A DNA stretch of 64,000 nt from an uncultured Methanosarcinales archaeon (GCA_964343705.1 CAYFJX010000001.1:6100-70099); one strand, 5' to 3'; shown: positions 15,978 to 52,612, counted from the stretch's first letter. Program-made: numbers and translations. Notes: generated by a model from the sequence alone, not told the origin.

Positions 15978-16069
15978 AAGATATCATACTGGAGGCAGCT
16001 CCAGGGGTTTAAAAAGCTTTAGGTGGTAATAAGAGAAAAATTAAATAGCGATAACCAGGTATAGGTATC

Positions 16070-28628: not shown

Positions 28629-30098
28629 ATGACAAAAACAACAGGCAATCAAGCAATAACAAAAGAAACCATCTTCAAACAGATTAAGAAGAAGTGGTAT
28701 GCGCAAGGATTTAACTGCACACCCTTACTTCTAGGTGGACCTGGCCTCAGCGGATTTGATGTCAAGCCAACATTAGGAGATAATTATAAGAGCTTTCTGT
28801 GGGAATTCAAAAACGAGTACGGTAAAATGTACTATGCTGTTGATGACCTAGAACGACTTGGCAAACTACTTGTTGCCAAAATCAAAAAAGAAAAAAACTA
28901 CATTGACATGCTTAGGAAAAAAGATCAAAAACGGCAAGAAAAAACAATACAAGATGTTATTGCAATCCCAGAAAAGGAATACAAAAACCTGTCTGACAAA
29001 GAATTATACAATCTTCTTCGTAAAGCAGCAAAAGCAAACAGAGACGTTGGAAAAATATCCCACATAATAGAAGGATTTTCTCTCACAGCAGACACTGAAA
29101 TAAAAGAACGACTCGAGAAGTATGTAAAAGATAGAAAAAAACTCAACAAATACCTCTCACTTCTATCCACACCAACAGAGCGCTCATTTATCAACGAACG
29201 AGAAGAGGACCTACATGAGATTGCACAGATTACAGACAAGGACAAACGAAAAAAAGCAATAGAAAAACATCTTAAGAAATTTTACTGGGTGCAAAACACG
29301 TATGCTGGACGTGTACGACTTACACCAGAAGAAATAGAAAAAGAATTAAGCACACTTCAGTATGAAGCAATTGACTTTGCAAAAATAGAACAAGAAAAAA
29401 ATGAAGCACTCAAACTCCTGCAACTTGATGAAGAACTAACCATGCTACTTCAGGCATCTGTTGACATCACAAGCTGGCAAGATGAAAGAAAAAAGAACAT
29501 TTTCATTAACATTGATGTAATAGAAGGAGTTATTGAAGAGATAGGTAAGCGATTAGAAATTGACCATAAACTTCTGAGGTACATTACTTACCATGAAGCA
29601 GTTGAAGGGGATATATTCTTGCAAGAAAATCTCAAGGAAACACTCACAACACGACGAGCAGGAATGATCCATTTTGCTGATGACACAAACACAGATGGAA
29701 TTCTTATTGGAGACGAGTACAAAGAATTCCATGAACGTATAGGTGAGGAAGAAAAAAAGCAACTTGAAACAAAAGAATTCAAAGGCATGGCTGCTTGTAC
29801 TGGCATAGCAATTGGAAAAGTTCGCGTTTGCACTAGTCTACAAGCAATACAAGATTTTAAAGAAGGAGAAGTGCTTGTTGCATCCATGACTCGTCCAGAA
29901 TATCTTCCAGCAATGAAAAAAGCATGTGCCATAGTTACTGACGAAGGAGGGATTACCTGCCACGCAGCTATTGTGTCCCGGGAACTTGGTATTCCCTGCA
30001 TCATCGGCACCAAGATTGCAACTAAGACCCTTCAAGATGGTGATACAGTTGAAGTTAAGGCAAACCATGGATTAGTTATAATCAGGGAAAAGGGATGA
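28629..30098 (+). CDS. PEP-utilizing swivel-domain protein, paralog 4
   Basis: KKWYAQGF, KFYWVQNTY, WQDERKK, and C-terminus GEVLVASMTRPEYLPAMKKACAIVTDEGGITCHAAIVSRELGIPCIIGT. Confidence 0.75.
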   Translation: MTKTTGNQAITKETIFKQIKKKWYAQGFNCTPLLLGGPGLSGFDVKPTLGDNYKSFLWEFKNEYGKMYYAVDDLERLGKLLVAKIKKEKNYIDMLRKKDQKRQEKTIQDVIAIPEKEYKNLSDKELYNLLRKAAKANRDVGKISHIIEGFSLTADTEIKERLEKYVKDRKKLNKYLSLLSTPTERSFINEREEDLHEIAQITDKDKRKKAIEKHLKKFYWVQNTYAGRVRLTPEEIEKELSTLQYEAIDFAKIEQEKNEALKLLQLDEELTMLLQASVDITSWQDERKKNIFINIDVIEGVIEEIGKRLEIDHKLLRYITYHEAVEGDIFLQENLKETLTTRRAGMIHFADDTNTDGILIGDEYKEFHERIGEEEKKQLETKEFKGMAACTGIAIGKVRVCTSLQAIQDFKEGEVLVASMTRPEYLPAMKKACAIVTDEGGITCHAAIVSRELGIPCIIGTKIATKTLQDGDTVEVKANHGLVIIREKG

Positions 30099-30111: not shown

Positions 30112-31614
30112 ATGAAAGCAATTAAGAACGCTGTTATTCCAAAAGAAAAAGTATTTGAGCAAGTCAAGAACAAGTGGTATACACAAGGCTTTAATGGAGC
30201 CCCTATTCTTTCTGCACCAGCTGGCACATTAAGTAGTTTTGACATTGGTGAAACCTTAGGAGATGAGTTTCAACACCAACTTCTTGAGTTCAAAGAAGAT
30301 GTTGCAAAATTACACTACCCTGTTGATGACCTAGAACGCCTATCAAAAATCATACTTACAAAACTTGAAAAAGATAAGAACTTCTTTGAAAAAGTGGAAA
30401 AAAAATACCAAGCAACATTTGACAAAGCATTTCAAGACTTACTTGGAGAAGCACAAACACCTTTTGCTTTTGCAGAGGGGTTGACAGATATTTCCAACAC
30501 AGAACTTGTTGCACTCATTAACAAAGCTTTGGATGTTGTTCGCCTGTCAGTTGGACAAGGCCATATCATAGAAGCTTTTGCATTAACAACTGACAAGCAG
30601 CTTTTGGAATCACTCAGAAAATATATCCCCAATCAAAAAAAACTCAATAGTGCATATGCAAAACTTTCATCCCCCACAAAAAGATCATTTATAGGCAAAA
30701 GTGAAGCAGACCTTGGAAAAATAGCGTGTATTAAGGATGATAAGAAACGAGATGCTGCTATACAAAAACATATAGAAAAATTCTTCTGGATCAAGAACAG
30801 TTTTGCAGGTAAAGTCACCATTTCCCCTGAAGATATTGAAGAGGAATTACCCCTGTACTACAACTACAAAGAAACAGACCTTGGTGCTTTGGAGAAAGAA
30901 CAAAAAGAAATGATCAGTGAGTACAAAATAACTGGAAAAACCCTAACCTTGTTACAAGCCACAAAGTATGTTGCATTATTTCAAGACAATCGAAAAGTGA
31001 ACATGCTCAGGAGCTTTCACTATGGAGATATCCTAATAGAAGAACTTAGCAAGCGGTTAGGAATTGACATTAAACTGGTGAGATATTTGTCTGCATACGA
31101 ATTTAATGAATCAGTATTTACTGATACCACACTAAAAAAGACACTTGAAGAACGACGCAGAGGAACAATAATGTACCATACTCCTAGCGGTGAGGGGATA
31201 CTAACAGGAGATGATTACAAGAAATTCTGCGCGGAATTGCAAAAGGCAAGAGGTGTAGAAATTGATCTAAAACAATTAAATGGCTTATCTGCGTCAGTGG
31301 GAACTGCTTTGGGCAAAGTAAGTATTTGCAGTAGCCTAGACGACATCAACAATTTCGAAAAAGGCGATATTCTTGTTGCATCAATGACCAAGGTTGAGTT
31401 CTTACCTGCAATGAGAAAAGCAGCAGCCATTATTACTGATGAAGGTGGCATCACATGCCATGCAGCAATAGTCAGCAGAGAATTTGGCATCCCTTGCGTT
31501 ATTGGCACCAAACATGCAACAAGAGTTTTGCACAATGGTGATCTTGTCGAAGTACGAGCAAACCATGGAGTGGTAATCATTAAGGAAAGAACCATAGAAC
31601 GGAGTCAACAGTAG
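30112..31614 (+). CDS. PEP-utilizing swivel-domain protein, paralog 5
   Basis: NKWYTQGF, KFFWIKNSF, FQDNRK, and C-terminus GDILVASMTKVEFLPAMRKAAAIITDEGGITCHAAIVSREFGIPCVIGT. Confidence 0.75.
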   Translation: MKAIKNAVIPKEKVFEQVKNKWYTQGFNGAPILSAPAGTLSSFDIGETLGDEFQHQLLEFKEDVAKLHYPVDDLERLSKIILTKLEKDKNFFEKVEKKYQATFDKAFQDLLGEAQTPFAFAEGLTDISNTELVALINKALDVVRLSVGQGHIIEAFALTTDKQLLESLRKYIPNQKKLNSAYAKLSSPTKRSFIGKSEADLGKIACIKDDKKRDAAIQKHIEKFFWIKNSFAGKVTISPEDIEEELPLYYNYKETDLGALEKEQKEMISEYKITGKTLTLLQATKYVALFQDNRKVNMLRSFHYGDILIEELSKRLGIDIKLVRYLSAYEFNESVFTDTTLKKTLEERRRGTIMYHTPSGEGILTGDDYKKFCAELQKARGVEIDLKQLNGLSASVGTALGKVSICSSLDDINNFEKGDILVASMTKVEFLPAMRKAAAIITDEGGITCHAAIVSREFGIPCVIGTKHATRVLHNGDLVEVRANHGVVIIKERTIERSQQ

Positions 31615-31615
31615 A

Positions 31616-32926
31616 ATGCCACTGAAGAAAAAAGTTGGAGGAGTTCTCATTTTCATTGTAACAATTATGGTATTGTTTGTGGTGACTGAAGTTGGCTTGC
31701 GAGCATTCTACCCTCAATTAACACCAACAACAAATGAACCATCCAAAAGTTTTAACCAGTGTGCAGCACAGATTGAATTCAGTGAGCAGGGTGAAAAAAA
31801 GAAGTCAATCATACAAGTACCTGATTTCCTTATATCAGATCCAATTATAATCTATTCAAACAAGGGTAAGAAAAGGGATATACCTATTGAAGCATTACCC
31901 TTTCCTGAACTTAGCGCGATTGGGCTTAAACCAGTACCTTATTGTAAGATCAGTAAAACAAGTGAAAACCCCCCAAACATGGCAAACTACAGATTAAACA
32001 ATCTTGGTATGCGCATGAACAAGGACAGTACGCCAAAGCCACGTGTCGGCACAAAAAGAATCCTTCTCATTGGAGACTCTTTTGTTTTTGGCACAGGAAT
32101 TGACCAGAATGAGACACTTAATTATTTTTTAGACAATCTTCTCCCTGAAAATACCGAAGTGCTTAATGGGGGTATCCCCACACTTTCAAGTCTACAAACA
32201 AACTTGCTTTTTAGCAGCACGTACAAAACACTGGAAGCAGACACAGTAATTTTCTTACAGTACATGAATGATGTAACAGATAACCTTCGTCCATCTTCTA
32301 AGTACCGACGACCAACATACATACCAGAAAATGATACAATAGAAAAAATAATGGCTGAAAAAAAACCTACGAAAAAAGAAAGCCCCCCTCCCAATCCGTT
32401 AATTCACAAATCTCACTTCCTAACGCTGTTTAGTAAGACAATGGAAAAAATTACAACCCCAAAAAAGCCATTGGGTACAAACCCCAGACTCCTTCCTTTG
32501 CTCCAACTGCTAAGAAAACAACCAATACCTGTTATAGAAAAAGCATACATATTCAACTGCGACCAAGTACTTGCTCCACTCAAAGAAGCTGTAGGTGAAA
32601 CTGGTGCACGTTTCATGCTAGTCCATATCCCTTCACGATTAGAAATGGACAGGAAAGCATTTGTAGATACAATTAAGAATCATGCAGACCTCTCTGTGGA
32701 TGAATTTGACCAAGAATTAGTTGGGAGAAAAATAGCAGAATGCGCAAAAGAACACAACATCCCATTCATTAACCTCCAACCATACTTCAAAAAATACACC
32801 ACCCAATCAGGGGCTGAATGGTACAACTCTCATGGCAGTCATTGGTCGCCTAAAGCAACACAATTAACAGCTCGAGTGTTAAACACTGTCCTTAGCAAGG
32901 AATTTAAAAACAGAATAAAAGAATAA
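31616..32926 (+). CDS. SGNH/GDSL-like hydrolase or acyltransferase-fold membrane protein, paralog 1 of 3
   Basis: N-terminal TM, RILLIGDSFVFGTGIDQNETLNYFL (block I Ser), C-terminal EWYNSHGSHWSPKAT. ATG lies 2 nt after the paralog-5 stop. Confidence 0.6.
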   Translation: MPLKKKVGGVLIFIVTIMVLFVVTEVGLRAFYPQLTPTTNEPSKSFNQCAAQIEFSEQGEKKKSIIQVPDFLISDPIIIYSNKGKKRDIPIEALPFPELSAIGLKPVPYCKISKTSENPPNMANYRLNNLGMRMNKDSTPKPRVGTKRILLIGDSFVFGTGIDQNETLNYFLDNLLPENTEVLNGGIPTLSSLQTNLLFSSTYKTLEADTVIFLQYMNDVTDNLRPSSKYRRPTYIPENDTIEKIMAEKKPTKKESPPPNPLIHKSHFLTLFSKTMEKITTPKKPLGTNPRLLPLLQLLRKQPIPVIEKAYIFNCDQVLAPLKEAVGETGARFMLVHIPSRLEMDRKAFVDTIKNHADLSVDEFDQELVGRKIAECAKEHNIPFINLQPYFKKYTTQSGAEWYNSHGSHWSPKATQLTARVLNTVLSKEFKNRIKE

Positions 32927-32965
32927 TAAAAGAATTTTTAAATACCTATAGGAGAACTGACGCAG

Positions 32966-34111
32966 ATGGGTCAAAAAAAACGCATAAAAGACGCTCTTAA
33001 ACAACTCCAAGGAGGAGATGCAAGAACAACTACTGTAGAACTTGAATACCCAAAGAAGATCCGTACAAAAAGTAAGCCACGCGTCTGGTACAATAAGTTT
33101 GTTTTTGCATTGCAAAAAAAACTTGTACCAAGCCACTTCAAAAATTGGCTTCTGGGCACAACAGGAATGAATGTTGGACACGACTGCTGTATCCCTCACG
33201 ATATTTCTTTTGATCCTTACTTTCCAGAACTGATTACACTTGGACCAGGTACGTTAGTAGGTGGTGGTTCAACCCTCAAAGCACACACAGTAAAAGATAA
33301 CAAACTCACACTTGGTAAGATAACCTTTGCTGAACGAGCAATGTGCGGAGGAATGTCTCTAATTCTTCCTGGCGCAGGAATTCAGAAGAATTCAATTCTT
33401 AACATGCATGCGACACTGGACAAAGTTATGCCAGAAGCAGAACTATGGGCAGGTGAACCTGCAAAGTGCACCATGAAGTTTACACCTGAGCTTGTAGATA
33501 AATTCTTTAAGAAAGCAACAACAGACCCTGCTGAGCAAAAGAAATACTACAAAGAAGCAAAAGCAAAGATTCAAGCATTTATCAAAGATCCCAAGCAATC
33601 CTACTTAAAGATTTACTACAATGGAAACCGCGCAGGCGCAGGTAATGACTGGTTTAGGGCACGAAGTACCTTCCGCATTTTTTATAATGGAATTATCACA
33701 GAATTTACCCGACTCCTCCCACACTGCTGGTTCAAAACAGTACTACTTAAAATGATGGGTGCCAAGATTGGCAAAAATTGCTACATTGGAAAAGGAGTTG
33801 TGTTTGATCATATTTATGGCGACATGGTGACATTAGAAGATAATGTGCGTGTTGATGACTATGCTTATTTTGATGGCCATGAATACACTCTTACTCAAAC
33901 AGTATTTGGGCGTGTACTATGTAAAAAAGGTTCCTGGATAAAAAAACACACGTTGATTCGATGTGGTTGTATTATTGGTGAAGGCGCTATTATTGAGAAA
34001 AAAAGCCTTGCTGGTAAAGAAATCCCTGCTGGAGAGGTCTGGGGTGGTGTACCAGCAAAACTCATTAGAAAAGTATCTGACAAAGACCGCGAAGCAAAAA
34101 AACAGTTCTAA
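32966..34111 (+). CDS. Tandem left-handed beta-helix (hexapeptide-repeat) acyltransferase-like protein
   Basis: Two runs of [LIV]-G-x-x-x-x hexapeptide repeats, residues ~60-160 and ~250-370. Confidence 0.65.
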   Translation: MGQKKRIKDALKQLQGGDARTTTVELEYPKKIRTKSKPRVWYNKFVFALQKKLVPSHFKNWLLGTTGMNVGHDCCIPHDISFDPYFPELITLGPGTLVGGGSTLKAHTVKDNKLTLGKITFAERAMCGGMSLILPGAGIQKNSILNMHATLDKVMPEAELWAGEPAKCTMKFTPELVDKFFKKATTDPAEQKKYYKEAKAKIQAFIKDPKQSYLKIYYNGNRAGAGNDWFRARSTFRIFYNGIITEFTRLLPHCWFKTVLLKMMGAKIGKNCYIGKGVVFDHIYGDMVTLEDNVRVDDYAYFDGHEYTLTQTVFGRVLCKKGSWIKKHTLIRCGCIIGEGAIIEKKSLAGKEIPAGEVWGGVPAKLIRKVSDKDREAKKQF

Positions 34112-34162
34112 ACACCTTAAAACTAATAAAAAATAAAAAGGCCAAGGTTCTGAAATACGTAT

Positions 34163-35467
34163 ATGATACTAGAGGTGATACTAGGATTCTGTATACTTTC
34201 AACTACATTATTACTCTTCCAGCAAAAACGGAAGTATAAAAGGCTCAAGAAAGAAATAGAAGATAGTGAATCAGGGGAGATCTGGGACCCAAAAAAATGG
34301 ATGCCAGATAAAGAATCACATTCTAAGCTTGAAGAGGAAATTGAAAATGCACCTCTTGAACCAACCATGCTTAGTTCAAAAAAGCCTTCACAGTACGCTA
34401 TTGATAATAGCCCACAAAGTGAGTATAGTAAAGACCCCACTAAGGAAGGAATGCGTGGTGTTCGAGAAAATCTTTCTGATGCAAGACAACGAATGCCAAC
34501 ACCAAAATCCCTTAAAGAAAAAATAGGAACTATGCTCAAAAATGTGAAAAACATTGCATACAATGGTTTTGACAATACTGTTGGTTTGCCTATTGCACTG
34601 TACCAAAATCATAAAACAAAAAAGCATTTTAAGAAAAACCCAAATAGTAAAGATCCTCTGACATACCTTATGCATGGGTTAGGTCAAAACAGGGGAAGTC
34701 AGTGGCGGCGAGCTCGTGATTTACGTAAAAGAGGTATGCATGCTTATCATTTGAAAGGAAATCATGATCTTGGAAATAAAGGATCCACAGATGAAGCTTT
34801 TGATCAAATAGAAGAGTTTCATGAAGATACTGGACTAGAACGAAAATCAAAAGGACACTACAGAGCATTTAGTGGGCACAGTAGCGGGGGTAATACTGGT
34901 ATTTCCATGGCAAGTGATAAGCGCATAAAAAAGTATGGAATTAACCATGTGCAGGCTGTTGCGCCAACACCTGCTGGCTTTGAAAAATTACGAACTGCAG
35001 AAGTAAAAGCAGCTGGGATTATTATCAATGTTGATCATGAAGATACTCGAAAAAGCAAGCCTGCTCGAAAAGAAGCAATCAGACTTCATCGAGAAAAACC
35101 TAATGTGCCAGTGTATGTTGTTTCGGGTGAGCATGATGCACTTGTTCCACCTGATGATGCAGTATACAAACATGCAAAAGGGTATAAAGTACTGAAAGGA
35201 GAACACACCACTCATTTTGGTACAAGTGGTGTCAATGAAAAAGCAAATAAGGAGCTTAATGAGTTGCTAACTGATAAGTCAGGGTACCGACCAACTGAGT
35301 GGTACAAGCCAAAAACAGGCTCTGTGAAGGAACACAAACGTGACTTTTTAGGACGTGATGAACATGGGCGAAAAGAGCTGCAGAAATGGGAACAAAACAA
35401 AAAAAAGTACCAGGGAGAAAAGCCTGTTGTTGAATATGAAGTTAAGAAACAGAAAAAAGCCGCATAA
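34163..35467 (+). CDS. Lys-rich alpha/beta-hydrolase-fold protein with N-terminal TM
   Basis: HGLGQN oxyanion-type motif, nucleophile elbow FSGHSSGGN (GxSxG), later acidic and His residues (DHED, GEHDALVP, HTTHF). Confidence 0.5.
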   Translation: MILEVILGFCILSTTLLLFQQKRKYKRLKKEIEDSESGEIWDPKKWMPDKESHSKLEEEIENAPLEPTMLSSKKPSQYAIDNSPQSEYSKDPTKEGMRGVRENLSDARQRMPTPKSLKEKIGTMLKNVKNIAYNGFDNTVGLPIALYQNHKTKKHFKKNPNSKDPLTYLMHGLGQNRGSQWRRARDLRKRGMHAYHLKGNHDLGNKGSTDEAFDQIEEFHEDTGLERKSKGHYRAFSGHSSGGNTGISMASDKRIKKYGINHVQAVAPTPAGFEKLRTAEVKAAGIIINVDHEDTRKSKPARKEAIRLHREKPNVPVYVVSGEHDALVPPDDAVYKHAKGYKVLKGEHTTHFGTSGVNEKANKELNELLTDKSGYRPTEWYKPKTGSVKEHKRDFLGRDEHGRKELQKWEQNKKKYQGEKPVVEYEVKKQKKAA

Positions 35468-35525
35468 TTCTAAGAGATATGAAAAACCGAAAGCTTTTTA
35501 TACATGAAGTAATAATAATTACCAA

Positions 35526-36116
35526 ATGGTAAAAAAAATTACCAAAACAGAAATTATTGCACAATATCTCAATGATTATGGTAAAAGATATTATCTCAGA
35601 GAATTAGCCAATATTCTCAACAAACCCCACCAGACTATAAAGCCATATTTACAAGATCTTGTAAAGGAAAAAATACTTCTCAAATTTGAAAGGAAAAACT
35701 TTGTTGAATACGGACTCAACATGAAAAACTCCCAAATTTACGACCACTTAGTTATCACTGAAAAAGAAAAACTCATGAAAAGATTGCAAGAAGACACATA
35801 TTTAAGAGTATTTTTTGAAAAACTCACCCCTTTTTTCCAGCAAAACACATTTATACTTTTTGGCTCAGCAGTAAATAAAATACAAAAAGGGTCAGACATA
35901 GATATTGTAAACATATGGAAAAAAGATGCGAAAAAAGGAATACAAGAATTTGAACAAGTATATAATAAGAAAATCCATGAAATCTCTGTCCCAAGCATAA
36001 AAAAAATCTCCCCTAGATTAATCAAAGAAATATACAAAAAACACCTTATTTTAAACAACACAGAAGAAGTAATAAGATATTTTGGTGAACTTTATGAAAA
36101 AAATCAATTGGTGTAA
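35526..36116 (+). CDS. Minimal nucleotidyltransferase (MNT, Pol-beta-like) with N-terminal wHTH
   Basis: NTase signature FGSAVNKIQKGSDIDIV (G-S...D-x-D). Paired with an overlapping downstream HEPN-like ORF. Confidence 0.65.
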   Translation: MVKKITKTEIIAQYLNDYGKRYYLRELANILNKPHQTIKPYLQDLVKEKILLKFERKNFVEYGLNMKNSQIYDHLVITEKEKLMKRLQEDTYLRVFFEKLTPFFQQNTFILFGSAVNKIQKGSDIDIVNIWKKDAKKGIQEFEQVYNKKIHEISVPSIKKISPRLIKEIYKKHLILNNTEEVIRYFGELYEKNQLV

Positions 36117-36576
36117 AAAGCAAGTAAACGGAATAAAATTAGTAGAGCCAAATGATAATATTAGCCAAGAATATTTTGAAAATGCTGAAGAAAGTTTACA
36201 GGTTCTAAGAAGTATTTATGAAACAAGATCAAATATGTGGCTTGCAACAACAAAATACTATATTGAATATTTCGCTATTTATTCAGTTTTAATGAAAATA
36301 GGAATAAAATGTGAAATACATGATTGCACAATTTTATTAGTAAACTTTCTTGAAAAGGAAAAGATCTTTAAGGAAGGTGTAAGCAAGATTTTAGAAGAAG
36401 ATAAAGGACTAAGAATAGATAACCAATACTATTTAAAGAATAAAGAAGTGCCTATAAATTTTGAAGAATTAGCAGATTTCCTGATTTCAATAAAGAATAT
36501 GCTAGATATGTTAGACAAAGAAAGAATAGAAGAGATTAGGAAAAAGATACAAGATGAAGAAGTAACAAAAACATAA
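36082..36576 (+). CDS. HEPN-like protein (partner of MNT)
   Basis: All-helical 164-aa ORF overlapping the MNT gene 3' end. The canonical Rx4-6H motif is not obvious. Confidence 0.4.
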   Translation: MVNFMKKINWCKKQVNGIKLVEPNDNISQEYFENAEESLQVLRSIYETRSNMWLATTKYYIEYFAIYSVLMKIGIKCEIHDCTILLVNFLEKEKIFKEGVSKILEEDKGLRIDNQYYLKNKEVPINFEELADFLISIKNMLDMLDKERIEEIRKKIQDEEVTKT

Positions 36577-36631
36577 TATACAACCATCAAAAGAGTATGA
36601 TTTATATAAGATATATTTCTACACTCATCTA

Positions 36632-37948
36632 ATGAATCAAAAGAACCAAAAAGAACTTATCAAGAAAGTAAACACCATGAAATGGGAGCATTGGTTGTAT
36701 AGAAACTTCCCTCCTTTTAGTGGCCATATTATTGCTTCTGGAGCATTACCTTCTGAATATGAACGCATGGGGTACCCGGCAAAGGGTGTTGAGGGTTTTA
36801 TTTATGACAGTAACAATTGGTGGCGTTGCATGCCTGTATACGATGCAAGTGCAGATTGGGTAGATGAGTACTTACAAAAGCACACTGTTTTCGAAACAAC
36901 CAAAGCAATCCAGAAACATTATGATAAATACAAAAACAGAATTAAAGAGATTGCTGCTGACACAAGTAGCGACCCAATTGAACAATTTAGGGAAGTATGT
37001 GATATTCTTAGGCCAATCTGTGTGTGGATTTGGATTTGCCACCAGTTTGAAGTATGGATAAAGAAGGAAGTAAAAAAACAAATCCCTCCCTTTCTTAAAA
37101 AAGGAGAAGATCTTGATTTGTATGTGGGGGATATAAGTCTTCCAACAAAAAAGAACCACCATGAGCTCATGGCAGACGCCCTGATTGCAGGACAAGACCC
37201 AAAAGAAGTACATAAAGAATATGGATGGATCAAAGCACGAGGTAGAAGTGGATTTGCAAAAGGGTACACACTTGAAGAAGTAAAGCAAATGCAAAAAGAC
37301 TTACAAAAGAAAAAGAGCCACAAACTTAAACCAAAAAAAGTACCAGCTGAACTTGAAGAACTTCAAAAGCAATTGCAAGAATTAGTGTGGTTTCGCTTAT
37401 TCCGGACAGATATTGCGTACGAATTTGTATATAATTCACACCCACTCTTTGAAAGAGTTGCAAAAGCACGGGGTATTGAAAAAGTAGAAGACTACCTGTA
37501 CACCGACATTCTTGATACAACTAAGGAACCAAAAAAGTATGACCCCAATAATTATGCAGTACTAAAAGAAGGCACCACCCTTCTTATTGTCGACCACGCA
37601 GTCTTGGAACATGATGAAGTCAAAGACACTGAACTTAAAGGAGTGACTGCAATGAGAGGCAAAGCAACAGGCACAGCAAAAATAGTTATGAATGTTAATG
37701 ACATGCACAAAGTCAAGAAAGGAGATATTCTTGTAACTCCCATGACTATTGCACCTTATGTTCCTGCAATGGAGCGATCAGCAGCGTTTGTAACTGACGA
37801 AGGAGGTATTACCTGCCACGCAGCTATTCTCTCGCGAGAAATGAGCAAGCCATGCATTATTGGAACTAAAAAAGCAACCAGTGCATTTAAAGATGGTGAT
37901 GTTCTCGAAGTAGACGCTGATGCAAGCATTGTTAAGAAAATACGATAA
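36632..37948 (+). CDS. PEP-utilizing swivel-domain protein, paralog 6 (most divergent)
   Basis: C-terminus GDILVTPMTIAPYVPAMERSAAFVTDEGGITCHAAILSREMSKPCIIGT. N-terminus has MKWEHWLYRNF. Confidence 0.7.
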   Translation: MNQKNQKELIKKVNTMKWEHWLYRNFPPFSGHIIASGALPSEYERMGYPAKGVEGFIYDSNNWWRCMPVYDASADWVDEYLQKHTVFETTKAIQKHYDKYKNRIKEIAADTSSDPIEQFREVCDILRPICVWIWICHQFEVWIKKEVKKQIPPFLKKGEDLDLYVGDISLPTKKNHHELMADALIAGQDPKEVHKEYGWIKARGRSGFAKGYTLEEVKQMQKDLQKKKSHKLKPKKVPAELEELQKQLQELVWFRLFRTDIAYEFVYNSHPLFERVAKARGIEKVEDYLYTDILDTTKEPKKYDPNNYAVLKEGTTLLIVDHAVLEHDEVKDTELKGVTAMRGKATGTAKIVMNVNDMHKVKKGDILVTPMTIAPYVPAMERSAAFVTDEGGITCHAAILSREMSKPCIIGTKKATSAFKDGDVLEVDADASIVKKIR

Positions 37949-37968
37949 TAACAAAAAATAATAGTTAT

Positions 37969-39588
37969 TTATCCAACAACCTTTTTGTTCTTCATCCACT
38001 GATGCACAATTTTTGCGCTTTCTTTTGTTGCCTTTGGAGACCAATGGTTTCCTGCTTGATTGTACCATTCAAGTGTTTGGGGAGTGAAATGATTATGCAA
38101 GTCAATGAAATCAATTCCATGCTTTTCTGAACAGGACTGCAACTTTGTTCGCATAAGCTCAAGATCAAAGTCATCTGGATCTGCACCAATATACGATTTC
38201 ATAGTTCGCTGAAAAGAAGGTGCATGAAGTTCTGCTTTAGACGGCACATACAGAACCAAGAATGGCACGTCAGTTGACTGTTGAAAGATGCGCAGCACTG
38301 CGTCGCAATTAAATGTGTATGCTTCTTGTGCTTGAGGAAGCAACTCTTTGCGTACCATTTGATAAATATCCATTTCTATTGGTTTTTCTTCCATTACTCT
38401 GCGTCGATTAAGCAGAACATCTTTGTTTTTGTCAATGAGCGCCAGGAAGTGTGATGAATACACAAACGGCCCTTGCCGTTTACCAATGCTATTCTTCTTT
38501 TCTTTAAATGGAACAAACATGTCAGCACGAACGTTTTTTGTTTCAAAGTCATACAGGGGTTTTTCATAATGTTTTATTTCAAGGTTACCTCGCACGTCAT
38601 TGAAAGAATGTACCAACACCACGGCATCTGGTTGGTATTCTTTGTATACTCGTTGGTAGAGTAGCAAACTTTGAAGTGTTGATATACCACTGATTCCCCC
38701 GTTAAGAACTTCAACTTTTTCACTGAAGGATTCACCCAATGACTCACCTAAGTAATGACTAAGTGTTTGATCTTGATCTAGACCTGCTCCAAAAGCAAAG
38801 GAGTCACCCACAACTAAAACGCGTTTAACACCTGTTGGTTTTTCCAGAGTGATATTATTGTCCATACGAAATGCGTGATTGTTCATGTGGAATGTTGCCA
38901 GGCCAGGAGGGTTTTCACTCATCTTGACAATTCTACAATTAGGAAGTGTTCCAATACCTGCTGCAAGCAAACGAGGATCATCACCAAGAAGACTAATTTC
39001 TTTTCCATCTCCTAGGCTAATAGCAATTGGATTAATCAAGGTAACATCTCGCGCCATGAGTTCAACTTCTCCTGTTTCACCAAGATGTAATCGCTTGTCT
39101 TTAACTGTAAAATATTGCGTACAGTCTCTTTTGTTCTGATTCAAAATAGATAAGCCAAGGGTTGTATTCTGCTGTGCTTGAGGATAGGTTGTTGCAAGTG
39201 AGAATTCAACAACCACTGATGAAACAACTAGAATACTAATGAAGAGTAAGATGCTCAGCTTCTTGTTCCAAGCCCTACCAAAGAGATGTTTCCATCTTCT
39301 CGGCTTTCGAAGAGGAGGGATAAATATAAGCGCAAAAAGAAGAGGTGCAAATAACCCCCACAATGCCAATTCAAGTATCTCAGGGGCAAACGAAAAACTG
39401 AGAGTGTTAAAAACCAGAGAGAAAAAATGAGTCAACATTAATTTCCCCACTGAAACCCATTCTAGCCCCAGTGTTCCCAGATCTTCAATGTAAAAAGGGT
39501 GAATTTGATGGGGAACTGGAATAAACATCAAGAGTAGAAAAAGTGCAATAAGCACGTGCTTCTTCTTTAAGGTTGCTTTGAGATCCAT
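37969..39588 (-). CDS. SGNH/GDSL-like membrane protein, paralog 2
   Basis: Four N-terminal TM helices with IPVPHQIHPFYIED, RVLVVGDSFAFGAGLDQDQTLSHYL, and C-terminal EWYNQAGNHWSPKAT. Confidence 0.6.
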   Translation of the reverse strand: MDLKATLKKKHVLIALFLLLMFIPVPHQIHPFYIEDLGTLGLEWVSVGKLMLTHFFSLVFNTLSFSFAPEILELALWGLFAPLLFALIFIPPLRKPRRWKHLFGRAWNKKLSILLFISILVVSSVVVEFSLATTYPQAQQNTTLGLSILNQNKRDCTQYFTVKDKRLHLGETGEVELMARDVTLINPIAISLGDGKEISLLGDDPRLLAAGIGTLPNCRIVKMSENPPGLATFHMNNHAFRMDNNITLEKPTGVKRVLVVGDSFAFGAGLDQDQTLSHYLGESLGESFSEKVEVLNGGISGISTLQSLLLYQRVYKEYQPDAVVLVHSFNDVRGNLEIKHYEKPLYDFETKNVRADMFVPFKEKKNSIGKRQGPFVYSSHFLALIDKNKDVLLNRRRVMEEKPIEMDIYQMVRKELLPQAQEAYTFNCDAVLRIFQQSTDVPFLVLYVPSKAELHAPSFQRTMKSYIGADPDDFDLELMRTKLQSCSEKHGIDFIDLHNHFTPQTLEWYNQAGNHWSPKATKESAKIVHQWMKNKKVVG

Positions 39589-39607
39589 AAGAACTGCAAA
39601 ATAGGTT

Positions 39608-39620
39608 GGTTATAAAAATG
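39608..39620 (-). promoter_or_regulatory. TATA box for the SGNH paralog-2 gene
   Basis: TTATAAAAA about 22 nt upstream of the ATG at 39588 on the minus strand. Leaderless-type spacing. Confidence 0.35.
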
Positions 39621-39624
39621 TTGT

Positions 39625-39634
39625 CGAATCAGAG
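39625..39634. repeat. 10-bp direct repeat CGAATCAGAG (left copy, putative target-site duplication)
   Basis: Identical 10-mer at 39837..39846, immediately outside the inverted termini. Confidence 0.4.
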
Positions 39635-39836
39635 GGTGTGTCCCAAGAGTCTTTCTGAGAGGTGGCACTGCCGCAAGGTTTTATCAGGAAATCTCAAGGG
39701 ACGAAGCTCCTTGACGCATCTGAGCTTTGCTCAGATTGCGGCCGAATAATGAGGCGATTTCCGTATGAATGGATTTGAGTAGTTAACACCGCAGTGCCAC
39801 CCCTCCTGCACAAAAAGCAAGATTTGGGACACACCC
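39635..39836. mobile_element. MITE-like nonautonomous element (~202 bp), or alternatively a long-stem structured RNA, in a divergent promoter region
   Basis: Terminal inverted repeats GGTGTGTCCCAA and TTGGGACACACC(C). Sub-terminal inverted repeats GAGGTGGCACTGCCG / CGCAGTGCCACCCCTC. Internal hairpins ATCTGAGC-TTT-GCTCAGAT and GGAAATC...GATTTCC. No ORF. Confidence 0.4.
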
Positions 39837-39846
39837 CGAATCAGAG
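39837..39846. repeat. 10-bp direct repeat CGAATCAGAG (right copy)
   Basis: Matches 39625..39634. Confidence 0.4.
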
Positions 39847-39851
39847 GAAGC

Positions 39852-39859
39852 TTTAAATA
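39852..39859 (+). promoter_or_regulatory. TATA box for swivel-domain paralog 7
   Basis: TTTAAATA 23 nt upstream of the ATG at 39882. Confidence 0.35.
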
Positions 39860-39881
39860 GGTGATGACTAACCCGAGGAAC

Positions 39882-41318
39882 ATGGAAATCAGCAAGTTTA
39901 CAAACAAGAAATGGGTCATACAGGGTGCTGTCATCACACCTCACCTGAACGCGTTTGCAGTCGATGCACTCACCAAGGGCCTCCAAGATATTACAGGACA
40001 TGGTTTGAGTGTTATTCTCACGTTTATGACACAAGAAGGAGAGTACAGCCATTGGGTACTTGATGAAGAATCATTGAATACAGAGGGAAAATGGTATGAT
40101 GATCACCCTGAAGAACTCAAGAAACTCTTCATGGCATGGGAAAAAGCGCGTGATGTCTATTATGAATACATTGAAGGCATCATGGAAAAAGGTGTTACTG
40201 ACCCCATTACAGAATACAAGCAATTTAGAGAACATTATCAAAATGCGTACGCTCATGCTCTTGTGACAGAACACTTTATTGTGTGGGGTGACAAGATACT
40301 TGCAACAATTCTTGAAAAGATACCTAAAGAAAAAAGAAAACAGGTTGAAATACTGACTGCACCAATCAAACACACTTTCTTAAATGATGAGGAGCTTGGC
40401 CTTCTTAAGATAGGATTACAATTTAAGCAAACAGGAAAAATCTCTGAAGAAGACTTGAAGAAACACACTAAGAAATTTTTCTGGATCAGAAACAATTACA
40501 AGAACACTAAGCCAATGAGTTTACAAGAATTTGAAAAACGTTTGCATGCATCCATTGCAGAACTAACTGAAAAACAAGTTACAGCAAAGATTGCAGAGTT
40601 AGAAACATATGAGCAAGATCTAATTAAGAAAAAAGAACAAGCTCGAGAAAAGCTTGGCTTGGCAAAGGAAGATGAGGAAAAGCTTGAACTTCTTTCTTTA
40701 GTTGCATGGTGGCATGACCAACGTAAAAAAGGAAATCTTCTTGGCGATCATGTTGCAGGATTGTTTTTTGAAAAAGCGGCAAAAGACCATACCGCTCCCT
40801 TAATTGATATTAAATTTATGCTGCCAGATGAATTCTTAAAGTTTCTCGAAACAGGAGAGTACAATAAAGATGAAATACAAGAACGAAAAAAAGCATGTGT
40901 GTACATAACAGCAAATACAGGTGAGAAAAGCATGCATACTGGGAAGACCTATGAAGAACTTAGTGAAACAGTACTTGAACAAGAATATGAAGAAAAAATA
41001 AAGGATGTTCGTGGAATGACTGCTTCGTATGGCCATGCAAAAGGTCCAGTAAAAGTAGTTCTAAACCCCAAGGATACTGATATAGAAAAAGGAGACGTTC
41101 TTGTAACAAGTATGACAAGGCCTGAATATGTCCCTCTTATGAAAAAAGCAGCAGCAATAGTAACAGATGAAGGAGGAGTTACAAGTCATGCAGCTGTAAT
41201 TTCACGAGAATTGGGAATACCTTGTATTGTTGGTACACGTATTGGAACAAAGGTACTTAAGGACGGCATGGTTGTTGAAGTCCGTTGTAACCATGGCCTT
41301 GTTAAGATTTGTGATTAA
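39882..41318 (+). CDS. PEP-utilizing swivel-domain protein, paralog 7
   Basis: NKKWVIQGA, KFFWIRNNY, WHDQRKK, and C-terminus GDVLVTSMTRPEYVPLMKKAAAIVTDEGGVTSHAAVISRELGIPCIVGT. Start set at the ATG positioned for the TATA box. The ORF track starts at a GTG at 39861. Confidence 0.7.
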   Translation: MEISKFTNKKWVIQGAVITPHLNAFAVDALTKGLQDITGHGLSVILTFMTQEGEYSHWVLDEESLNTEGKWYDDHPEELKKLFMAWEKARDVYYEYIEGIMEKGVTDPITEYKQFREHYQNAYAHALVTEHFIVWGDKILATILEKIPKEKRKQVEILTAPIKHTFLNDEELGLLKIGLQFKQTGKISEEDLKKHTKKFFWIRNNYKNTKPMSLQEFEKRLHASIAELTEKQVTAKIAELETYEQDLIKKKEQAREKLGLAKEDEEKLELLSLVAWWHDQRKKGNLLGDHVAGLFFEKAAKDHTAPLIDIKFMLPDEFLKFLETGEYNKDEIQERKKACVYITANTGEKSMHTGKTYEELSETVLEQEYEEKIKDVRGMTASYGHAKGPVKVVLNPKDTDIEKGDVLVTSMTRPEYVPLMKKAAAIVTDEGGVTSHAAVISRELGIPCIVGTRIGTKVLKDGMVVEVRCNHGLVKICD

Positions 41319-41332
41319 GCCTACAACGTATC

Positions 41333-43030
41333 TTATGAAGCATTGAGCACTCCGTTCTCCATCATCCATTCTTTGACACTATGTGCAGTAACATTGGTTG
41401 CTCGTGGAGACCAGTGACCTCCTGGTCGATTATACCACTCCCGCGGGCGCACATTTCTATGAGAATTAAACACTTCAGCCAAGTCAAGTAAGGGAATACC
41501 ATGTTTTTTTGCACAGACATGGATATACGCATTGCCTTGTAACCTGTCAAATTCACCTGGATCTGCATCAAGATAGCTTCTGATTGTTCTTTTAAAGTAA
41601 GGCTCGTCAAGTTCAATGTGAGGTGGAATGTAAATCAACAAAAAGGTTGCATTGTTTGCCAGAACAAGATCATAAAAAGGTTTGAGAACATAATTACAAT
41701 TAACGTTAAGAGCGTGGATCATAGATTGAGGAGGTTTTGTATTGAAGACATGAAACATAGATAAGTGACGAGGATTATCCCCCATAATTCGTTTTAGATT
41801 AAGTAGCTCATTTTTGACACCCTCAGCAAAGGAGACAAAATGAGAATAGGGAACAAGCGGTCCTGTGCTGGAACTAATGCCAAGGCGATCAATAGCTTTC
41901 CCAATAGGAGCATGCCGAATTAAGGTTTCATCTTGCAGAGAAAAAATAGGCATCTCATAATCAGATCGCTGTTCAAGATTACCATTGATATCATTAGGGT
42001 AGTGAAAAAAAAGCACTATATCAGGATCCCAATATTGTAAGGTGTCATTGTACATCAAATAACTTTGTAGAGAAGAAAAGCCTTGTACACCTGCGTTCAA
42101 AACTTGCGTTGTATCGCTTGTTAGTGCATTAAGATAATGACTCACTGTTTCATCTTGATCCATGCCCGCACCAAACGCAAAAGAATCTCCCATAACCATA
42201 ACTCGCTGTGAAATATTTTCTTTAGAACGGGTCACATTTTTTTGCATACGAAAACCATGATTATTAGTAACATAATCAACAAGATGAGTGCCGTCTTCAC
42301 CAACTTTTCTTGCTTTACAGTTGGGAACATTCTTAATCCCTGCTGAAACATTAAATCTGATTTCCACATTCTTCCCTGAAGCCGAATCAATTATTTTGGA
42401 AGGAGATGTAAGAACATAATGATGAAAATGGAACCCTCGCAATACTTTTCTCCCATCTGATTCAACTGGAGCAACAAAAGGACAATAAATCTGACTTGAT
42501 AATTCTTTTGCAACATCAGGAGAAATTTTCTTAGTAGGAAAAGACATTGCAAATACCAGCTCAATAACCAAGAGTATGATTATGCAAGTAGCAATACCTA
42601 ACAACAAATTCTTTGCCACAGTTCTATTGAACCCAGGTTGAAAGGAAAAAACAGGTTTAGACAAAAACCTTGGACCAAACCTAGGCAAGCCAGCTGCTGC
42701 TAAACACGTAAAAAAAAAGACTAAAGAACAATACAAAAAAACAGGGAGAACCAGCCCCCATATAAAAACATGGAACGTATAAGGATTAAAGGTTAATGTA
42801 AGAGCGTACAAAACAGAGGTTATTGCATGTGAGAAGAAAATGTTCCCTAGGAAAGCAGACTCAATTCCAAATGTGCCAACTTGTTCTATGTAAAATGCAT
42901 GTATCTCATGAGGAAAAGGAATCAGACAAACCAGGACAAAGATAAGAAGGTAAATTATACGAACTCTTGTCAATTCCCGAGAAAACCTCCTGAGAAAAGC
43001 CCTACTACCAGTTTTTCCTCTATCCCCCAT
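41333..43030 (-). CDS. SGNH/GDSL-like membrane protein, paralog 3
   Basis: IPFPHEIHAFYIEQ TM domain, RVMVMGDSFAFGAGMDQDETVSHYL, and C-terminal EWYNRPGGHWSPRAT. Confidence 0.6.
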   Translation of the reverse strand: MGDRGKTGSRAFLRRFSRELTRVRIIYLLIFVLVCLIPFPHEIHAFYIEQVGTFGIESAFLGNIFFSHAITSVLYALTLTFNPYTFHVFIWGLVLPVFLYCSLVFFFTCLAAAGLPRFGPRFLSKPVFSFQPGFNRTVAKNLLLGIATCIIILLVIELVFAMSFPTKKISPDVAKELSSQIYCPFVAPVESDGRKVLRGFHFHHYVLTSPSKIIDSASGKNVEIRFNVSAGIKNVPNCKARKVGEDGTHLVDYVTNNHGFRMQKNVTRSKENISQRVMVMGDSFAFGAGMDQDETVSHYLNALTSDTTQVLNAGVQGFSSLQSYLMYNDTLQYWDPDIVLFFHYPNDINGNLEQRSDYEMPIFSLQDETLIRHAPIGKAIDRLGISSSTGPLVPYSHFVSFAEGVKNELLNLKRIMGDNPRHLSMFHVFNTKPPQSMIHALNVNCNYVLKPFYDLVLANNATFLLIYIPPHIELDEPYFKRTIRSYLDADPGEFDRLQGNAYIHVCAKKHGIPLLDLAEVFNSHRNVRPREWYNRPGGHWSPRATNVTAHSVKEWMMENGVLNAS

Positions 43031-43164
43031 ACAGAGAGCAATATAACAAGGTATTAAAAAGATTTATATGATAAGAAGGTAGACTTGAAAAGACCTAAGT
43101 AAAGGCCCCTATAACCGCAAAGTTTAAAAAGGGCCGTCTTCTCCTCCAAACATACCTTTAAAAG

Positions 43165-43270
43165 GGGGCTATGGTGTAGCTTGGCTAGCATTGGAGGTTT
43201 GGGGCCTCCGGACCCCGGTTCAAAGCAGTGAACGGCGAAGCTCTTCACTATGAAAGTCCGGGTAGCCCCA
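43165..43270 (+). tRNA. tRNA-Pro (anticodon UGG) with a 32-nt intron in the T-loop (position 59/60)
   Basis: Acceptor GGGGCUA/UAGCCCC with U8. D-loop has A14, G18G19, A21. Anticodon stem GGAGG/CCUCC with loop UUUGGGG. T-stem CCCGG/CCGGG. Removing 43225..43256 gives T-loop UUCAAAU. Discriminator A, T-run after. Confidence 0.75.
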
Positions 43271-43338
43271 CTTTTATATGAAACATGGAGCGATACACCC
43301 TATATCGAGAAAAACAAAATGGCATTACCAAAAGAAAT

Positions 43339-51634: not shown

Positions 51635-52612
51635 ATGAAGCATAAGGTTCTTAGAATAGGTTTTCGCTTTTTTCTTTTTGCTCTACTTGTCAGCAGTGTT
51701 CCCATAATACTCCAGGTAATTGCAGCTCTTCTGGGATTTGATGAGCAGTTTTGGATTGCCCAAACCCATCCTTCCCTCTTTATAGCCACAATGGTGCTGT
51801 TGTTCTTTCTTATGAAGCGAAACGACCTCGAGCAGGTCAAGACCTCAAGCAGGGTATCACAAGCATGGTTCTTGGTGGGGTCATTACTTTCTTTTGCTGC
51901 TTATTTTGTTGTTAAGTATGCGTTTCCTTGGAAAGGAATTAGTACGCATTTCACCGTAAAATTGCTCTTTATATGTGCCTTTGTATTCTACTCAGTGGGT
52001 GTTTTTTTATTGTTTCTTGCCATGTTTTCTTGGGTATTTCTAAAACAGTACAAAACAAGCATACTAGGAATACTATTCACCACGATCTTTTATTACGGAT
52101 TTAATTACATTATTCTCAAAAAGATGGCAGTGTTTACTTTTATTGTAGCTAAAATCATTGCAACACCCCTGAGTTGGACAGGATCCCTTTCATTGGGCAC
52201 AACAAGTACTAATGACCCTTTGATTGTGTACAATGGTTTTCATGCTGGTATTGGCACTCCTTGCTCTGGTGTCCAGTCATTAAACATCTTTATGCTCTTG
52301 TCATTACTCTTGCTCTGCTTTGACTGGAACAAACTCAGAAAGGGAAGAAAAGCAATGTTGGGCATTTCCTTGCTTGGTGGATTAGTTGGAGTATACTTAG
52401 TAAACATAGTGCGCGTTTATGTGCTTATGCTCATTGGAGGGCATTTTTCACCTCACTTAGTGGAAGCATTTTTCCATGATAATGCTGGATGGGTTATTTT
52501 CAGCCTGTTTACAGTTGGGTACTGGGCTGTGTTGTATCCAAGACTCTTTAAAAAGAGCGCACCTCGCAAAATCGTCGGGAAAAGCAACACAAAGACACAA
52601 AAAAACATATAA
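51635..52612 (+). CDS. Archaeosortase/exosortase-family polytopic membrane protein (putative)
   Basis: About 8 TM helices. Cys in GIGTPCSGVQSLN (exosortase CSG-type context) and Arg in VNIVRVYVLM. A PEF-CTERM-type substrate gene lies at 60388..63009. Confidence 0.5.
   Translation: MKHKVLRIGFRFFLFALLVSSVPIILQVIAALLGFDEQFWIAQTHPSLFIATMVLLFFLMKRNDLEQVKTSSRVSQAWFLVGSLLSFAAYFVVKYAFPWKGISTHFTVKLLFICAFVFYSVGVFLLFLAMFSWVFLKQYKTSILGILFTTIFYYGFNYIILKKMAVFTFIVAKIIATPLSWTGSLSLGTTSTNDPLIVYNGFHAGIGTPCSGVQSLNIFMLLSLLLLCFDWNKLRKGRKAMLGISLLGGLVGVYLVNIVRVYVLMLIGGHFSPHLVEAFFHDNAGWVIFSLFTVGYWAVLYPRLFKKSAPRKIVGKSNTKTQKNI

Follow-up and report, generated by a model that had tools for sequence, protein, structure and literature searches.

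A 64,000-nt stretch of DNA deposited as an uncultured Methanosarcinales archaeon (GCA_964343705.1, CAYFJX010000001.1:6100-70099), here called the window, encodes three SGNH-fold membrane proteins, which we denote S1 (31616..32926, + strand, 436 amino acids, aa), S2 (37969..39588, − strand, 539 aa) and S3 (41333..43030, − strand, 565 aa). They are anciently diverged paralogs of a small archaeal clade of the DPANN/Woesearchaeota type within a very large, uncharacterised family of membrane-anchored SGNH-fold proteins. S1 has a single N-terminal signal-anchor, and S2 and S3 carry an additional N-terminal membrane module. We tentatively propose, in a reading that falls somewhat short of likely, that all three are extracytoplasmic, membrane-tethered SGNH acyl-enzymes that would use a Ser-His dyad in the esterase direction, with O-acyl groups of a glycoconjugate at the surface or close to the membrane as their target.

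A large SGNH family with an AlgX-type block V module

The first-pass annotation, made from the DNA before the present analysis, had claimed three paralogous open reading frames (ORFs). This was borne out by pairwise BLASTP (31–34% identity over ~415–560 residues, E 1e-66 to 1e-93) and by 86 invariant columns in the three-way alignment. When 1.84 billion cluster representatives were searched exhaustively with HMMER (E≤1e-3), 25,582 relatives were found, among which the typical member has ~380–400 aa and one N-terminal transmembrane (TM) helix. Only five sequences are close, namely S3 (itself representative P0126) and S1, P0128, P0129 and P0130, with the next match following at 1e-53. Locus scans with six close sequences returned only distant relatives, except for locus L094, which is the P0129 contig again; the close clade is therefore rare. 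The window genes, which also include an intein-bearing eRF1, prefoldin and the ribosomal proteins S15 and L37ae, show that the host is an archaeon, and contigs identical to it occur in the ENA metagenome project PRJEB17505. Their nearest homologues carry Woesearchaeota or Nanoarchaeota annotations, so that the host is probably a DPANN archaeon.

Modelled with AlphaFold on 150 family sequences, S2 adopts the SGNH fold (pLDDT 83.4, pTM 0.84), and structure comparison and Foldseek agree on this assignment. The best structural matches of the model are hydrolases; OatA-C scored 14.4 and PatB 13.7, and neither AlgX nor AlgJ was among the top 60 matches, on which Foldseek agrees as well. The closest solved structure is that of CgnD (PDB 8A2N, 13–14% identity), a weak match at the sequence level (E 1e-6 with the family profile). 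CgnD differs from S1–S3 in being soluble and in belonging to a cluster for a ribosomally made peptide with post-translational modifications (RiPP), that of crocagin, where this SGNH-type hydrolase slowly cleaves the leader peptide with a poorly positioned Ser (PMC10070186).

The three proteins have several features of the SGNH superfamily (Pfam clan CL0264), namely the three-layer α/β/α fold, the GDS nucleophile and the ND block, in the canonical block order S-G-N-H with the Ser ~250 residues ahead of the His. In profile searches, matches of the N-terminal half are to ordinary GDSL esterases, TesA among them. With 43.5 bits (6.4e-11), S2 lies above the cut-off of Pfam Lipase_GDSL_2 (PF13472, 32.9 bits), and S1 (21.2) and S3 (28.0) lie below it. 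The scores against ALGX (PF16822), 23.1, 20.4 and 14.6 bits, all stay below the gathering score of 26.5, and the match covers only the C-terminal part of the proteins (profile positions ~27–133 of 268). This dual Lipase_GDSL_2 and ALGX signature was present in 40 of the 50 family members tested. The only NCBIfam models to match were NF047474 and NF047475 (E 1e-7 to 3e-6; 16–32 bits against cut-offs of 300–325), over the region ahead of block I and blocks I and II. They describe the Leptospira SGNH/GDSL-type esterases LA_2486 and LA_2490, hypothetical equivalogs that are themselves uncharacterised.

Canonical GDSL/SGNH esterases (TesA, the CE2 and CE3 acetyl-xylan esterases) have a domain of ~180–220 residues, compared with ~400 in S1–S3. 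The latter have a membrane anchor with a conserved Glu, add a β-rich stretch of ~100 residues with an invariant N-x-x-G-x-R ahead of block I, carry an insertion of ~80–100 residues between blocks III and V, and space the catalytic His as D/G-x-H, whereas the esterases have D-x-x-H.

A profile of the last ~125 residues matches AlgX (E 3e-10), AlgJ (1e-9) and Bacillus cereus PatB1 (1e-5). The homology joins the C-terminal ~110 residues of the S1–S3 family to the N-terminal halves of AlgX/AlgJ (PF16822) and PatB1 and comprises a β-α-β unit and Y-x-x-x-[D/G]-x-H-W-x-x-G...A. In the alignment, the family sequence Y-f-k-x-D-x-H-W-x-x-G is paired with AlgX YFKGDHHWTPHG, the His-Trp falling on AlgX GDHHW. 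Also shared are the D-x-H type of block V (not D-x-x-H), the Trp after the His, the extracytoplasmic location, which for S1–S3 is predicted, and, with AlgJ, the membrane anchoring. AlgX, AlgJ and the DHHW enzymes are circularly permuted (H-S-G-N), with GTSYS (AlgX) or KDS (DHHW) in block I, Tyr in block III and D-x-H in block V (PMC9487903). The AlgX/AlgJ resemblance that the first-pass annotation had seen in the C-terminal block stands as a D-x-H-W likeness, but membership in the AlgX family was rejected, given the unpermuted S-G-N-H order, GDS rather than GTSYS, Asn rather than Tyr in block III, and ALGX scores below the cut-off. Because the canonical order and esterase-type blocks I–III are combined with an AlgX-type block V module, the family appears to be a non-permuted relative of the AlgX/AlgJ/DHHW enzymes that shares this module with them. 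DltD (PF04914) was also considered and rejected, as no DltD match was obtained in Pfam or PDB profile searches.

Active site, anchor and N-terminal membrane module

In S1, S2 and S3, respectively, block I reads GDSFVFGTGIDQNET, GDSFAFGAGLDQDQT and GDSFAFGAGMDQDET and block V reads EWYNSHGSHWSPKAT, EWYNQAGNHWSPKAT and EWYNRPGGHWSPRAT; the N-terminal motif is IPVPHQIHPFYIE in S2 and IPFPHEIHAFYIE in S3. The consensus motifs that had been quoted for them, GDSF-x-FG-x-G-x-DQ-x-x-T, EWYN-x-x-G-x-HWSP-[KR]-AT and, for S2 and S3, IP-x-PH-x-IH-x-FYIE, are all correct. According to the alignment, the nucleophile motif GDSF lies at 32072..32083 (+, Ser155) in S1, 38797..38808 (−, Ser263) in S2 and 42179..42190 (−, Ser283) in S3. 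The block V motifs are GSHWSP at 32834..32851 (+, His409), GNHWSP at 38035..38052 (−, His515) and GGHWSP at 41405..41422 (−, His539), with Gly407, Gly513 and Gly537 at the position where the family has Asp.

Residue conservation was tallied in the 150 best family representatives, using S2 numbering. G261 and D262 of block I, D331 of block III and H515 of block V were present in all 150, S263 in 149 and N330 in 146. In block II, N296 and G298 are invariant or nearly so, as is the N-x-x-G-x-R motif ahead of block I, and G301 was kept in 129 representatives. The catalytic Ser and His are invariant among the three paralogs, too. The N-x-G-x-x-G block is present in S1–S3; at the position equivalent to TesA Gly44, S2 and S3 have Gly and S1 has Thr189. 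Four Cys residues of the ecto-domain are invariant within the close clade, and three of these columns hold Cys in only 17–19 of the 150 representatives. Because the Ser, His, Asn and block I Gly-Asp are invariant in paralogs that share only about one third of their residues, the active site is under selection.

Block V departs from the classical D-x-x-H in S1–S3, where the His is invariant, the spacing is the D-x-H of the family and Gly stands in for Asp. Of the 150 representatives, 93 have Asp two positions ahead of the His, 20 have Gly, 18 Asn and 7 Glu; D-x-H-W occurs in 62% of the representatives, compared with G-x-H-W in S1–S3. The G-x-HW motif, which had been singled out as unusual, is thus not unique. 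Since 13 of the 14 closest representatives (P0128–P0141) share YN-x-x-G-x-HWSP-x-AT with S1, S2 and S3, the Gly is a character of the clade and not peculiar to this genome. Among CE2 esterases, active Ser-His dyads are documented in which loss of the Asp goes along with a Trp in the loop of block V (PMC9487903), and catalysis by such a dyad would be the simplest reading for S1–S3.

The signal-anchor helix of S1 (aa 10–33; 31643..31714, +; hydropathy 2.75 with positive-inside charges) follows the sequence MPLKKKVGG and holds the family-conserved Glu and an E-x-x-L-R-x-x-x-P juxtamembrane motif. This Glu, at the outer end of the TM helix, was found in 134 of the 138 aligned family representatives. 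Public gene calls start S1 at Met18 (419 aa); we prefer the start at 31616, because no other gives a K-rich N-terminus and a full TM helix, as in the homologue P0130. In both proteins the K-rich N-terminus precedes one strongly hydrophobic helix, a layout that predicts a signal anchor oriented N-in and a catalytic domain on the outer side.

In S2, the N-terminal membrane module spans aa 1–110 (39259..39588, −) and the last TM helix, the anchor, aa 111–134 (39187..39258, −); in S3, the corresponding segments are aa 1–141 (42608..43030, −) and aa 142–165 (42536..42607, −), as assigned from alignment, charge and hydropathy. The layout consists of a K/R-rich N-terminus with TM1, an acidic loop that holds the motif (PVPHQIHPFYIE at 39484..39519, −, in S2; PFPHEIHAFYIE at 42884..42919, −, in S3), a moderately hydrophobic helix and a strongly hydrophobic helix. 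The last helix and the K/R-rich loop before it align with the single anchor of S1 and P0130, to which the S2 anchor is homologous. P24, H27, H30, E43, G48 and H54 are invariant in seven module homologues. The module is confined to the closest relatives (P0128, P0129, P0131–P0133; weak in P0134 and P0138) and has no match in Pfam or NCBIfam. Compared by hhalign, it is unrelated (probability <1%) to the small membrane proteins of the carbamoyltransferase cassette described below.

The first-pass annotation had described a four-TM N-terminal domain. AlphaFold indeed predicts four helices in S2 if the anchor is counted, but only three are strongly hydrophobic. In the seven homologues, K and R abound in the N-terminus and in loop B, and acidic residues in the motif loop, a charge pattern that needs an odd number of spans; we therefore favour three membrane spans plus one interfacial helix for S2 and S3, which would leave both the H-x-x-H loop and the SGNH domain outside. 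For all three proteins, hydropathy and charge counts thus predict an extracytoplasmic SGNH domain.

With a membrane module followed by a presumably extracytoplasmic SGNH domain, S2 and S3 resemble OafA/OatA, PatA/PatB and AlgI/AlgJ/AlgX, a likeness of architecture only; conserved His residues near the outer end of the first helix are a further likeness to OafA/OatA and the MBOAT-SGNH proteins. However, the module has 3–4 helices in ~110–140 aa, compared with ~10 or more TM helices in these systems, and no AT3 or MBOAT Pfam match. Assignment to the fused AT3-SGNH type (OafA/OatA; AT3 PF01757, ~10 TM) was therefore rejected, the module having no NCBIfam match either, as was MBOAT membership, since none of S1–S3 matches MBOAT in Pfam.

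Proposed function and gene contexts of relatives

We suggest the following course of events. An N-in/C-out helix with the near-invariant Glu at its outer end would hold each protein in the cytoplasmic membrane and, by its orientation, set the catalytic domain on the outer membrane surface. There, the block I Ser (S155, S263 or S283) would attack the ester carbonyl in the standard SGNH acyl-enzyme mechanism, with the block V His (H409, H515 or H539) as the base and an oxyanion hole formed by the backbone amides of blocks I and II and the block III Asn (N218, N330 or N346). As Gly takes the place of the Asp that usually stands two residues ahead of the His, a Ser-His dyad would act, as it does in many CE2 esterases. 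The likeliest job would be that O-acyl, probably acetyl, groups are removed or moved on a cell-surface or membrane-proximal glycoconjugate. We chose the esterase direction for three reasons: blocks I–III are those of esterases, hydrolases make up the structural neighbours, and no MBOAT or AT3 donor turned up among the ORFs scanned in the 64-kb window. The extra module of S2 and S3 would expose an H-x-x-H...E...H cluster on the same outer face and probably adds a substrate, metal or partner site.

Gene contexts of the family were surveyed in 80 genome and 80 metagenome loci (mostly short), all with distant SGNH family members. Glycosyltransferases of family 2 (GT2) neighbour these in 16 of 80 loci and epimerases in 12 of 80, and large polytopic membrane proteins and AT3 acyltransferases occur as well. 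A carbamoyltransferase lies beside distant members in six of the 80 genome loci, always with DUF5989, and in 14 of the 80 metagenome loci, 11 of them with DUF5989; the loci with this gene span Omnitrophota, the candidate phyla radiation (CPR), Nanoarchaeia, Methanosarcinales and Actinomycetota. The gene contexts would place the family in glycan or small-molecule decoration. In the window itself, these partner genes are all absent.

Among the proteins that have the membrane module, the closest are P0128 and P0129, and both are encoded in such a cassette: SGNH-TM comes first, followed by DUF5989, a pair of small membrane ORFs, the NodU-type carbamoyltransferase and finally one to three more single-TM SGNH paralogs. 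Across loci, the cassette consists of a NodU-type carbamoyltransferase, in most cases DUF5989, and at least one SGNH/AlgX-like ecto-protein (L005:8001-16534, L003:374-5747, L026, L046, L050, L051, L056 and L070; in metagenomes L094, L121, L122, L141, L142, L146, L153, L155, L158-L160, L165, L167 and L171). Further small membrane ORFs were seen in the archaeal cassette loci L003, L005, L051 and L070. The cassette presumably resembles the sxtI/sxtJ/sxtK arrangement. The small ORFs of that arrangement are uncharacterised (PMC2885083). In the window, the cassette is absent according to tblastn.

Several observations weigh against the proposed esterases. The enzymes that share the block V module, AlgX, AlgJ and PatB1, are all MBOAT-partnered transferases (PMC9487903), and the envelope-glycan biosynthesis contexts of distant members, with their GT2, epimerase and AT3 genes, lean to a transferase as well. 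A donor protein could be encoded beyond the 64-kb window. In S1, Thr189 replaces the block II Gly, and the loss of the Asp could mean lowered or lost activity instead of dyad catalysis. The topology was deduced from hydropathy and charge counts, and if all four AlphaFold helices of the model spanned the membrane, the catalytic domain would be cytoplasmic.

The first of these points suggests that S1–S3 may be O-acyltransferases like AlgX, AlgJ and PatB1, which would pass an acyl group from a membrane donor, either an MBOAT or AT3 protein encoded elsewhere or the His-rich module of S2 and S3 themselves, to a surface glycan. Acyl hand-over at the membrane would fit the anchor with its near-invariant juxtamembrane Glu, and the His/Glu cluster of the module faces the side of the catalytic domain. 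We nevertheless consider this alternative unlikely, though well worth keeping in mind. Of the window ORFs that were scanned by Pfam or tblastn, none is an MBOAT, AT3, carbamoyltransferase or DUF5989 gene, and no Pfam match to MBOAT or AT3 is listed for the called genes around five close homologues. Blocks I–III are of the esterase type, including the Asn that is often replaced in transferases; a module of 3–4 helices is far below the size of any known acyl-translocating domain; and the best structural matches are hydrolases.

A lipid substrate appears still less probable. S1–S3 would then be membrane-surface lipases, lysophospholipases or other TesA-like acyl-hydrolases that act on ester lipids or lipid-linked intermediates, for example in the scavenging or remodelling of host lipids by a DPANN symbiont. 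This would agree with the sequence and fold matches to TesA/lysophospholipase L1, with an E-x-x-L-R interfacial motif that tethers the catalytic domain directly at the membrane, and with the general dependence of DPANN archaea on their hosts for lipids. Archaeal lipids, however, are ethers and offer no ester bond, and both the block V module and the family gene contexts point to glycans, among them the carbamoyltransferase in ~14% of the related loci examined, which occurs mostly with DUF5989 and marks a context of glycan or small-molecule decoration. Similarly doubtful is the idea that S2, S3 and about six Woesearchaeota-type relatives combine the N-terminal module and the Asp-less SGNH domain into a minimal, self-contained membrane acyl-relay or a metallo-assisted enzyme.

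That S1–S3 are catalytically impaired pseudo-enzymes with a binding or scaffold role seems very improbable: Asp is replaced by Gly throughout the clade, and CgnD, the closest solved structure, is very slow with a poorly positioned Ser (PMC10070186), but the invariance of Ser, His, Asn and block I Gly-Asp in the clade and in paralogs of 31–34% identity indicates selection on the active site, and Asp-less SGNH dyads are active in CE2 esterases.

The swivel-domain island, the remaining window and the place of the family

Seven paralogs with a swivel domain (PF00391, PEP-utilizers mobile) are encoded within 26 kb, all on the + strand (17840..19270, 23784..25217, 27099..28604, 28629..30098, 30112..31614, 36632..37948 and 39861..41318; the last three are denoted W5, W6 and W7). 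As had been noticed earlier, each SGNH gene adjoins one of them. S1 begins 1 nt past the stop of W5 (30112..31614) on the same strand, and this gap makes co-transcription of S1 with three swivel genes probable. S2 lies tail-to-tail with W6 (36632..37948; 20-nt gap) and S3 with W7 (39861..41318; 14-nt gap), W7 being divergent from S2. Both S2 and S3 appear to have promoters of their own. For S2, this would be the TATA-like box TTTATA (39611..39616, −), read from the sequence 22 nt 5′ of the ATG, with a transcript of the leaderless type; for S3, it would be TTTTAATA (43052..43059, −), 21 nt 5′ of the ATG.

The first-pass annotation had taken the adjacency to mean that each SGNH protein works with the phosphohistidine swivel protein beside it, the two transferring acyl or phospho groups to a substrate outside the cell in a membrane-coupled manner. 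In favour of this are the contact of all three SGNH genes with a swivel gene, the probable co-transcription of S1, and the distance between W6 and W7 (only ~110 bits), for which we rejected the W6-S2 and W7-S3 pairs as one recently duplicated unit. The coupling nevertheless lacks comparative support, whether looked for from the SGNH or from the swivel side. No swivel gene lies within 8–9 kb of the close SGNH homologues P0128, P0129, P0130, P0131 and P0133, and in the context survey swivel profile matches were limited to two of the 80 genome loci (one strong, one weak) and none of the 80 metagenome loci. Conversely, no SGNH gene occurs in the swivel arrays of locus L092 (Woesearchaeota-type, at least nine copies) or L093 (CPR, at least 11 copies). 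The window island is syntenic with L092 (phosphotransacetylase 59%, swivel paralog W3 58%, hexapeptide transferase 55% and the next gene 34% identity), where a HAD hydrolase takes the position of S1. The swivel proteins, including W5, are soluble (maximum Kyte–Doolittle value 1.3, no hydrophobic segment), whereas the SGNH domain is predicted outside the cell, and S2 and S3 are convergent with their swivel neighbours. With seven swivel paralogs in 26 kb, such adjacency is easy to get by chance. Because close homologues lack swivel genes, swivel arrays lack SGNH genes and L092 has the HAD hydrolase at the S1 site, the arrangement is probably best explained by insertion of the SGNH genes into a swivel-rich island and not by function; a functional coupling is highly improbable.

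Two genes that follow S1 appear to belong to this island rather than to the SGNH family, since they are kept after the swivel array of L092 with the 55% and 34% identity given above. The first (32966..34111, +; 381 aa), 40 nt 3′ of S1, encodes a left-handed β-helix (hexapeptide) O-acetyltransferase-like protein, for which the best NCBIfam match, a partial one (E 9e-29), is heptaprenylglyceryl-phosphate O-acetyltransferase. The second (34163..35467, +) encodes a membrane-anchored α/β-hydrolase-like protein. Between the latter and W6, the island is interrupted by an inserted nucleotidyltransferase (Polbeta) and HEPN pair (35526..36116 and 36082..36576, +), a toxin-antitoxin-like module.

The swivel proteins themselves, of ~440–520 aa, consist of a C-terminal phosphohistidine swivel and ~380 N-terminal residues without a Pfam match, and form tandem arrays of seven copies in the window, at least nine in L092:1-17458 and at least 11 in L093:1-17410. 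Their family profile aligns with residues 568–878 of rifampin phosphotransferase (5HV2), a region that takes in the swivel and, before it, the C-terminal portion of the rifampin-binding domain. They contain no ATP-grasp domain, and a search of the window for a PPDK_N ATP-grasp partner found none; in L092, a PPDK_N protein is encoded on its own (15074-16030). The arrays may accordingly be split kinases, with a single ATP-grasp protein that charges many paralogs, each specific for its substrate. A literature search for such split swivel kinases found none.

Additionally, we observed several features of the window in the vicinity of S2 and S3 and beyond. The intergenic region between S2 and W7 contains a ~205-bp element (39620..39845) with 13–14-bp terminal inverted repeats GGGGTGTGTCCCAA and the flanking direct repeat CCTCTGATTCG. 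Folding, which is equally good on either strand, gives −96.5 kcal/mol (z = −7.1). The element is present as a single copy in the window and has no Rfam match even at E≤1; it looks like a miniature inverted-repeat transposable element or an uncharacterised structured RNA. A tRNA-Pro(UGG) gene at ~43163..43271 (+) with a ~32-nt T-loop intron (...CCCGGTTCAAA[GCAGTGAACGGCGAAGCTCTTCACTATGAAAG]TCCGGGTAGCCCCA) was seen by eye; ARAGORN and Rfam, which reported no RNA genes in or around the locus, both missed it. As this gene covers the start of the L37ae ORF called from 43250, translation of L37ae probably begins at an internal Met near 43319. The aRF1 gene (13359..15977, −; eRF1 domains 1–3) is split by an intein with LAGLIDADG and helix-turn-helix domains. 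The product of 45296..46729 (+, 477 aa) has a marginal RelA/SpoT (alarmone synthetase) match (28.2 bits against a cut-off of 27). An exosortase/archaeosortase-like membrane protein (51635..52612, +) adjoins a CARDB-domain protein (52693..54930, +), and ORFs of 600–950 aa without a Pfam match lie at 47246..50110 (−), 54966..57095 (+), 57746..59581 (−) and 60388..63009 (+). The proteins of the exosortase/CARDB region are probably cell-surface proteins and possibly substrates or neighbours of surface-modifying enzymes.

These results remove a tempting link to the swivel proteins, which form large tandem arrays of their own. The novelty within the known SGNH superfamily lies in a loss of the Asp that is specific to this clade and in the fusion with a His-rich membrane module. 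The practical consequence remains modest until the substrate is found. If the minimal relay considered above were true, S2 and S3 would be a functional analogue of the AT3-SGNH and MBOAT-SGNH systems with only 3–4 helices, by which DPANN archaea would add acyl groups to surface glycoconjugates, or strip them off, be it on their own cells or on those of the host. As little is known about surface modification and host interaction in DPANN archaea, such ecto-enzymes are candidate players in both. More broadly, S1–S3 belong to a very large, unnamed SGNH branch that combines the canonical block order with a block V module of the AlgX/AlgJ/DHHW type. As this branch seems to be related to the permuted polysaccharide O-acetyltransferases without being permuted itself, it bears on the origin of the permutation.

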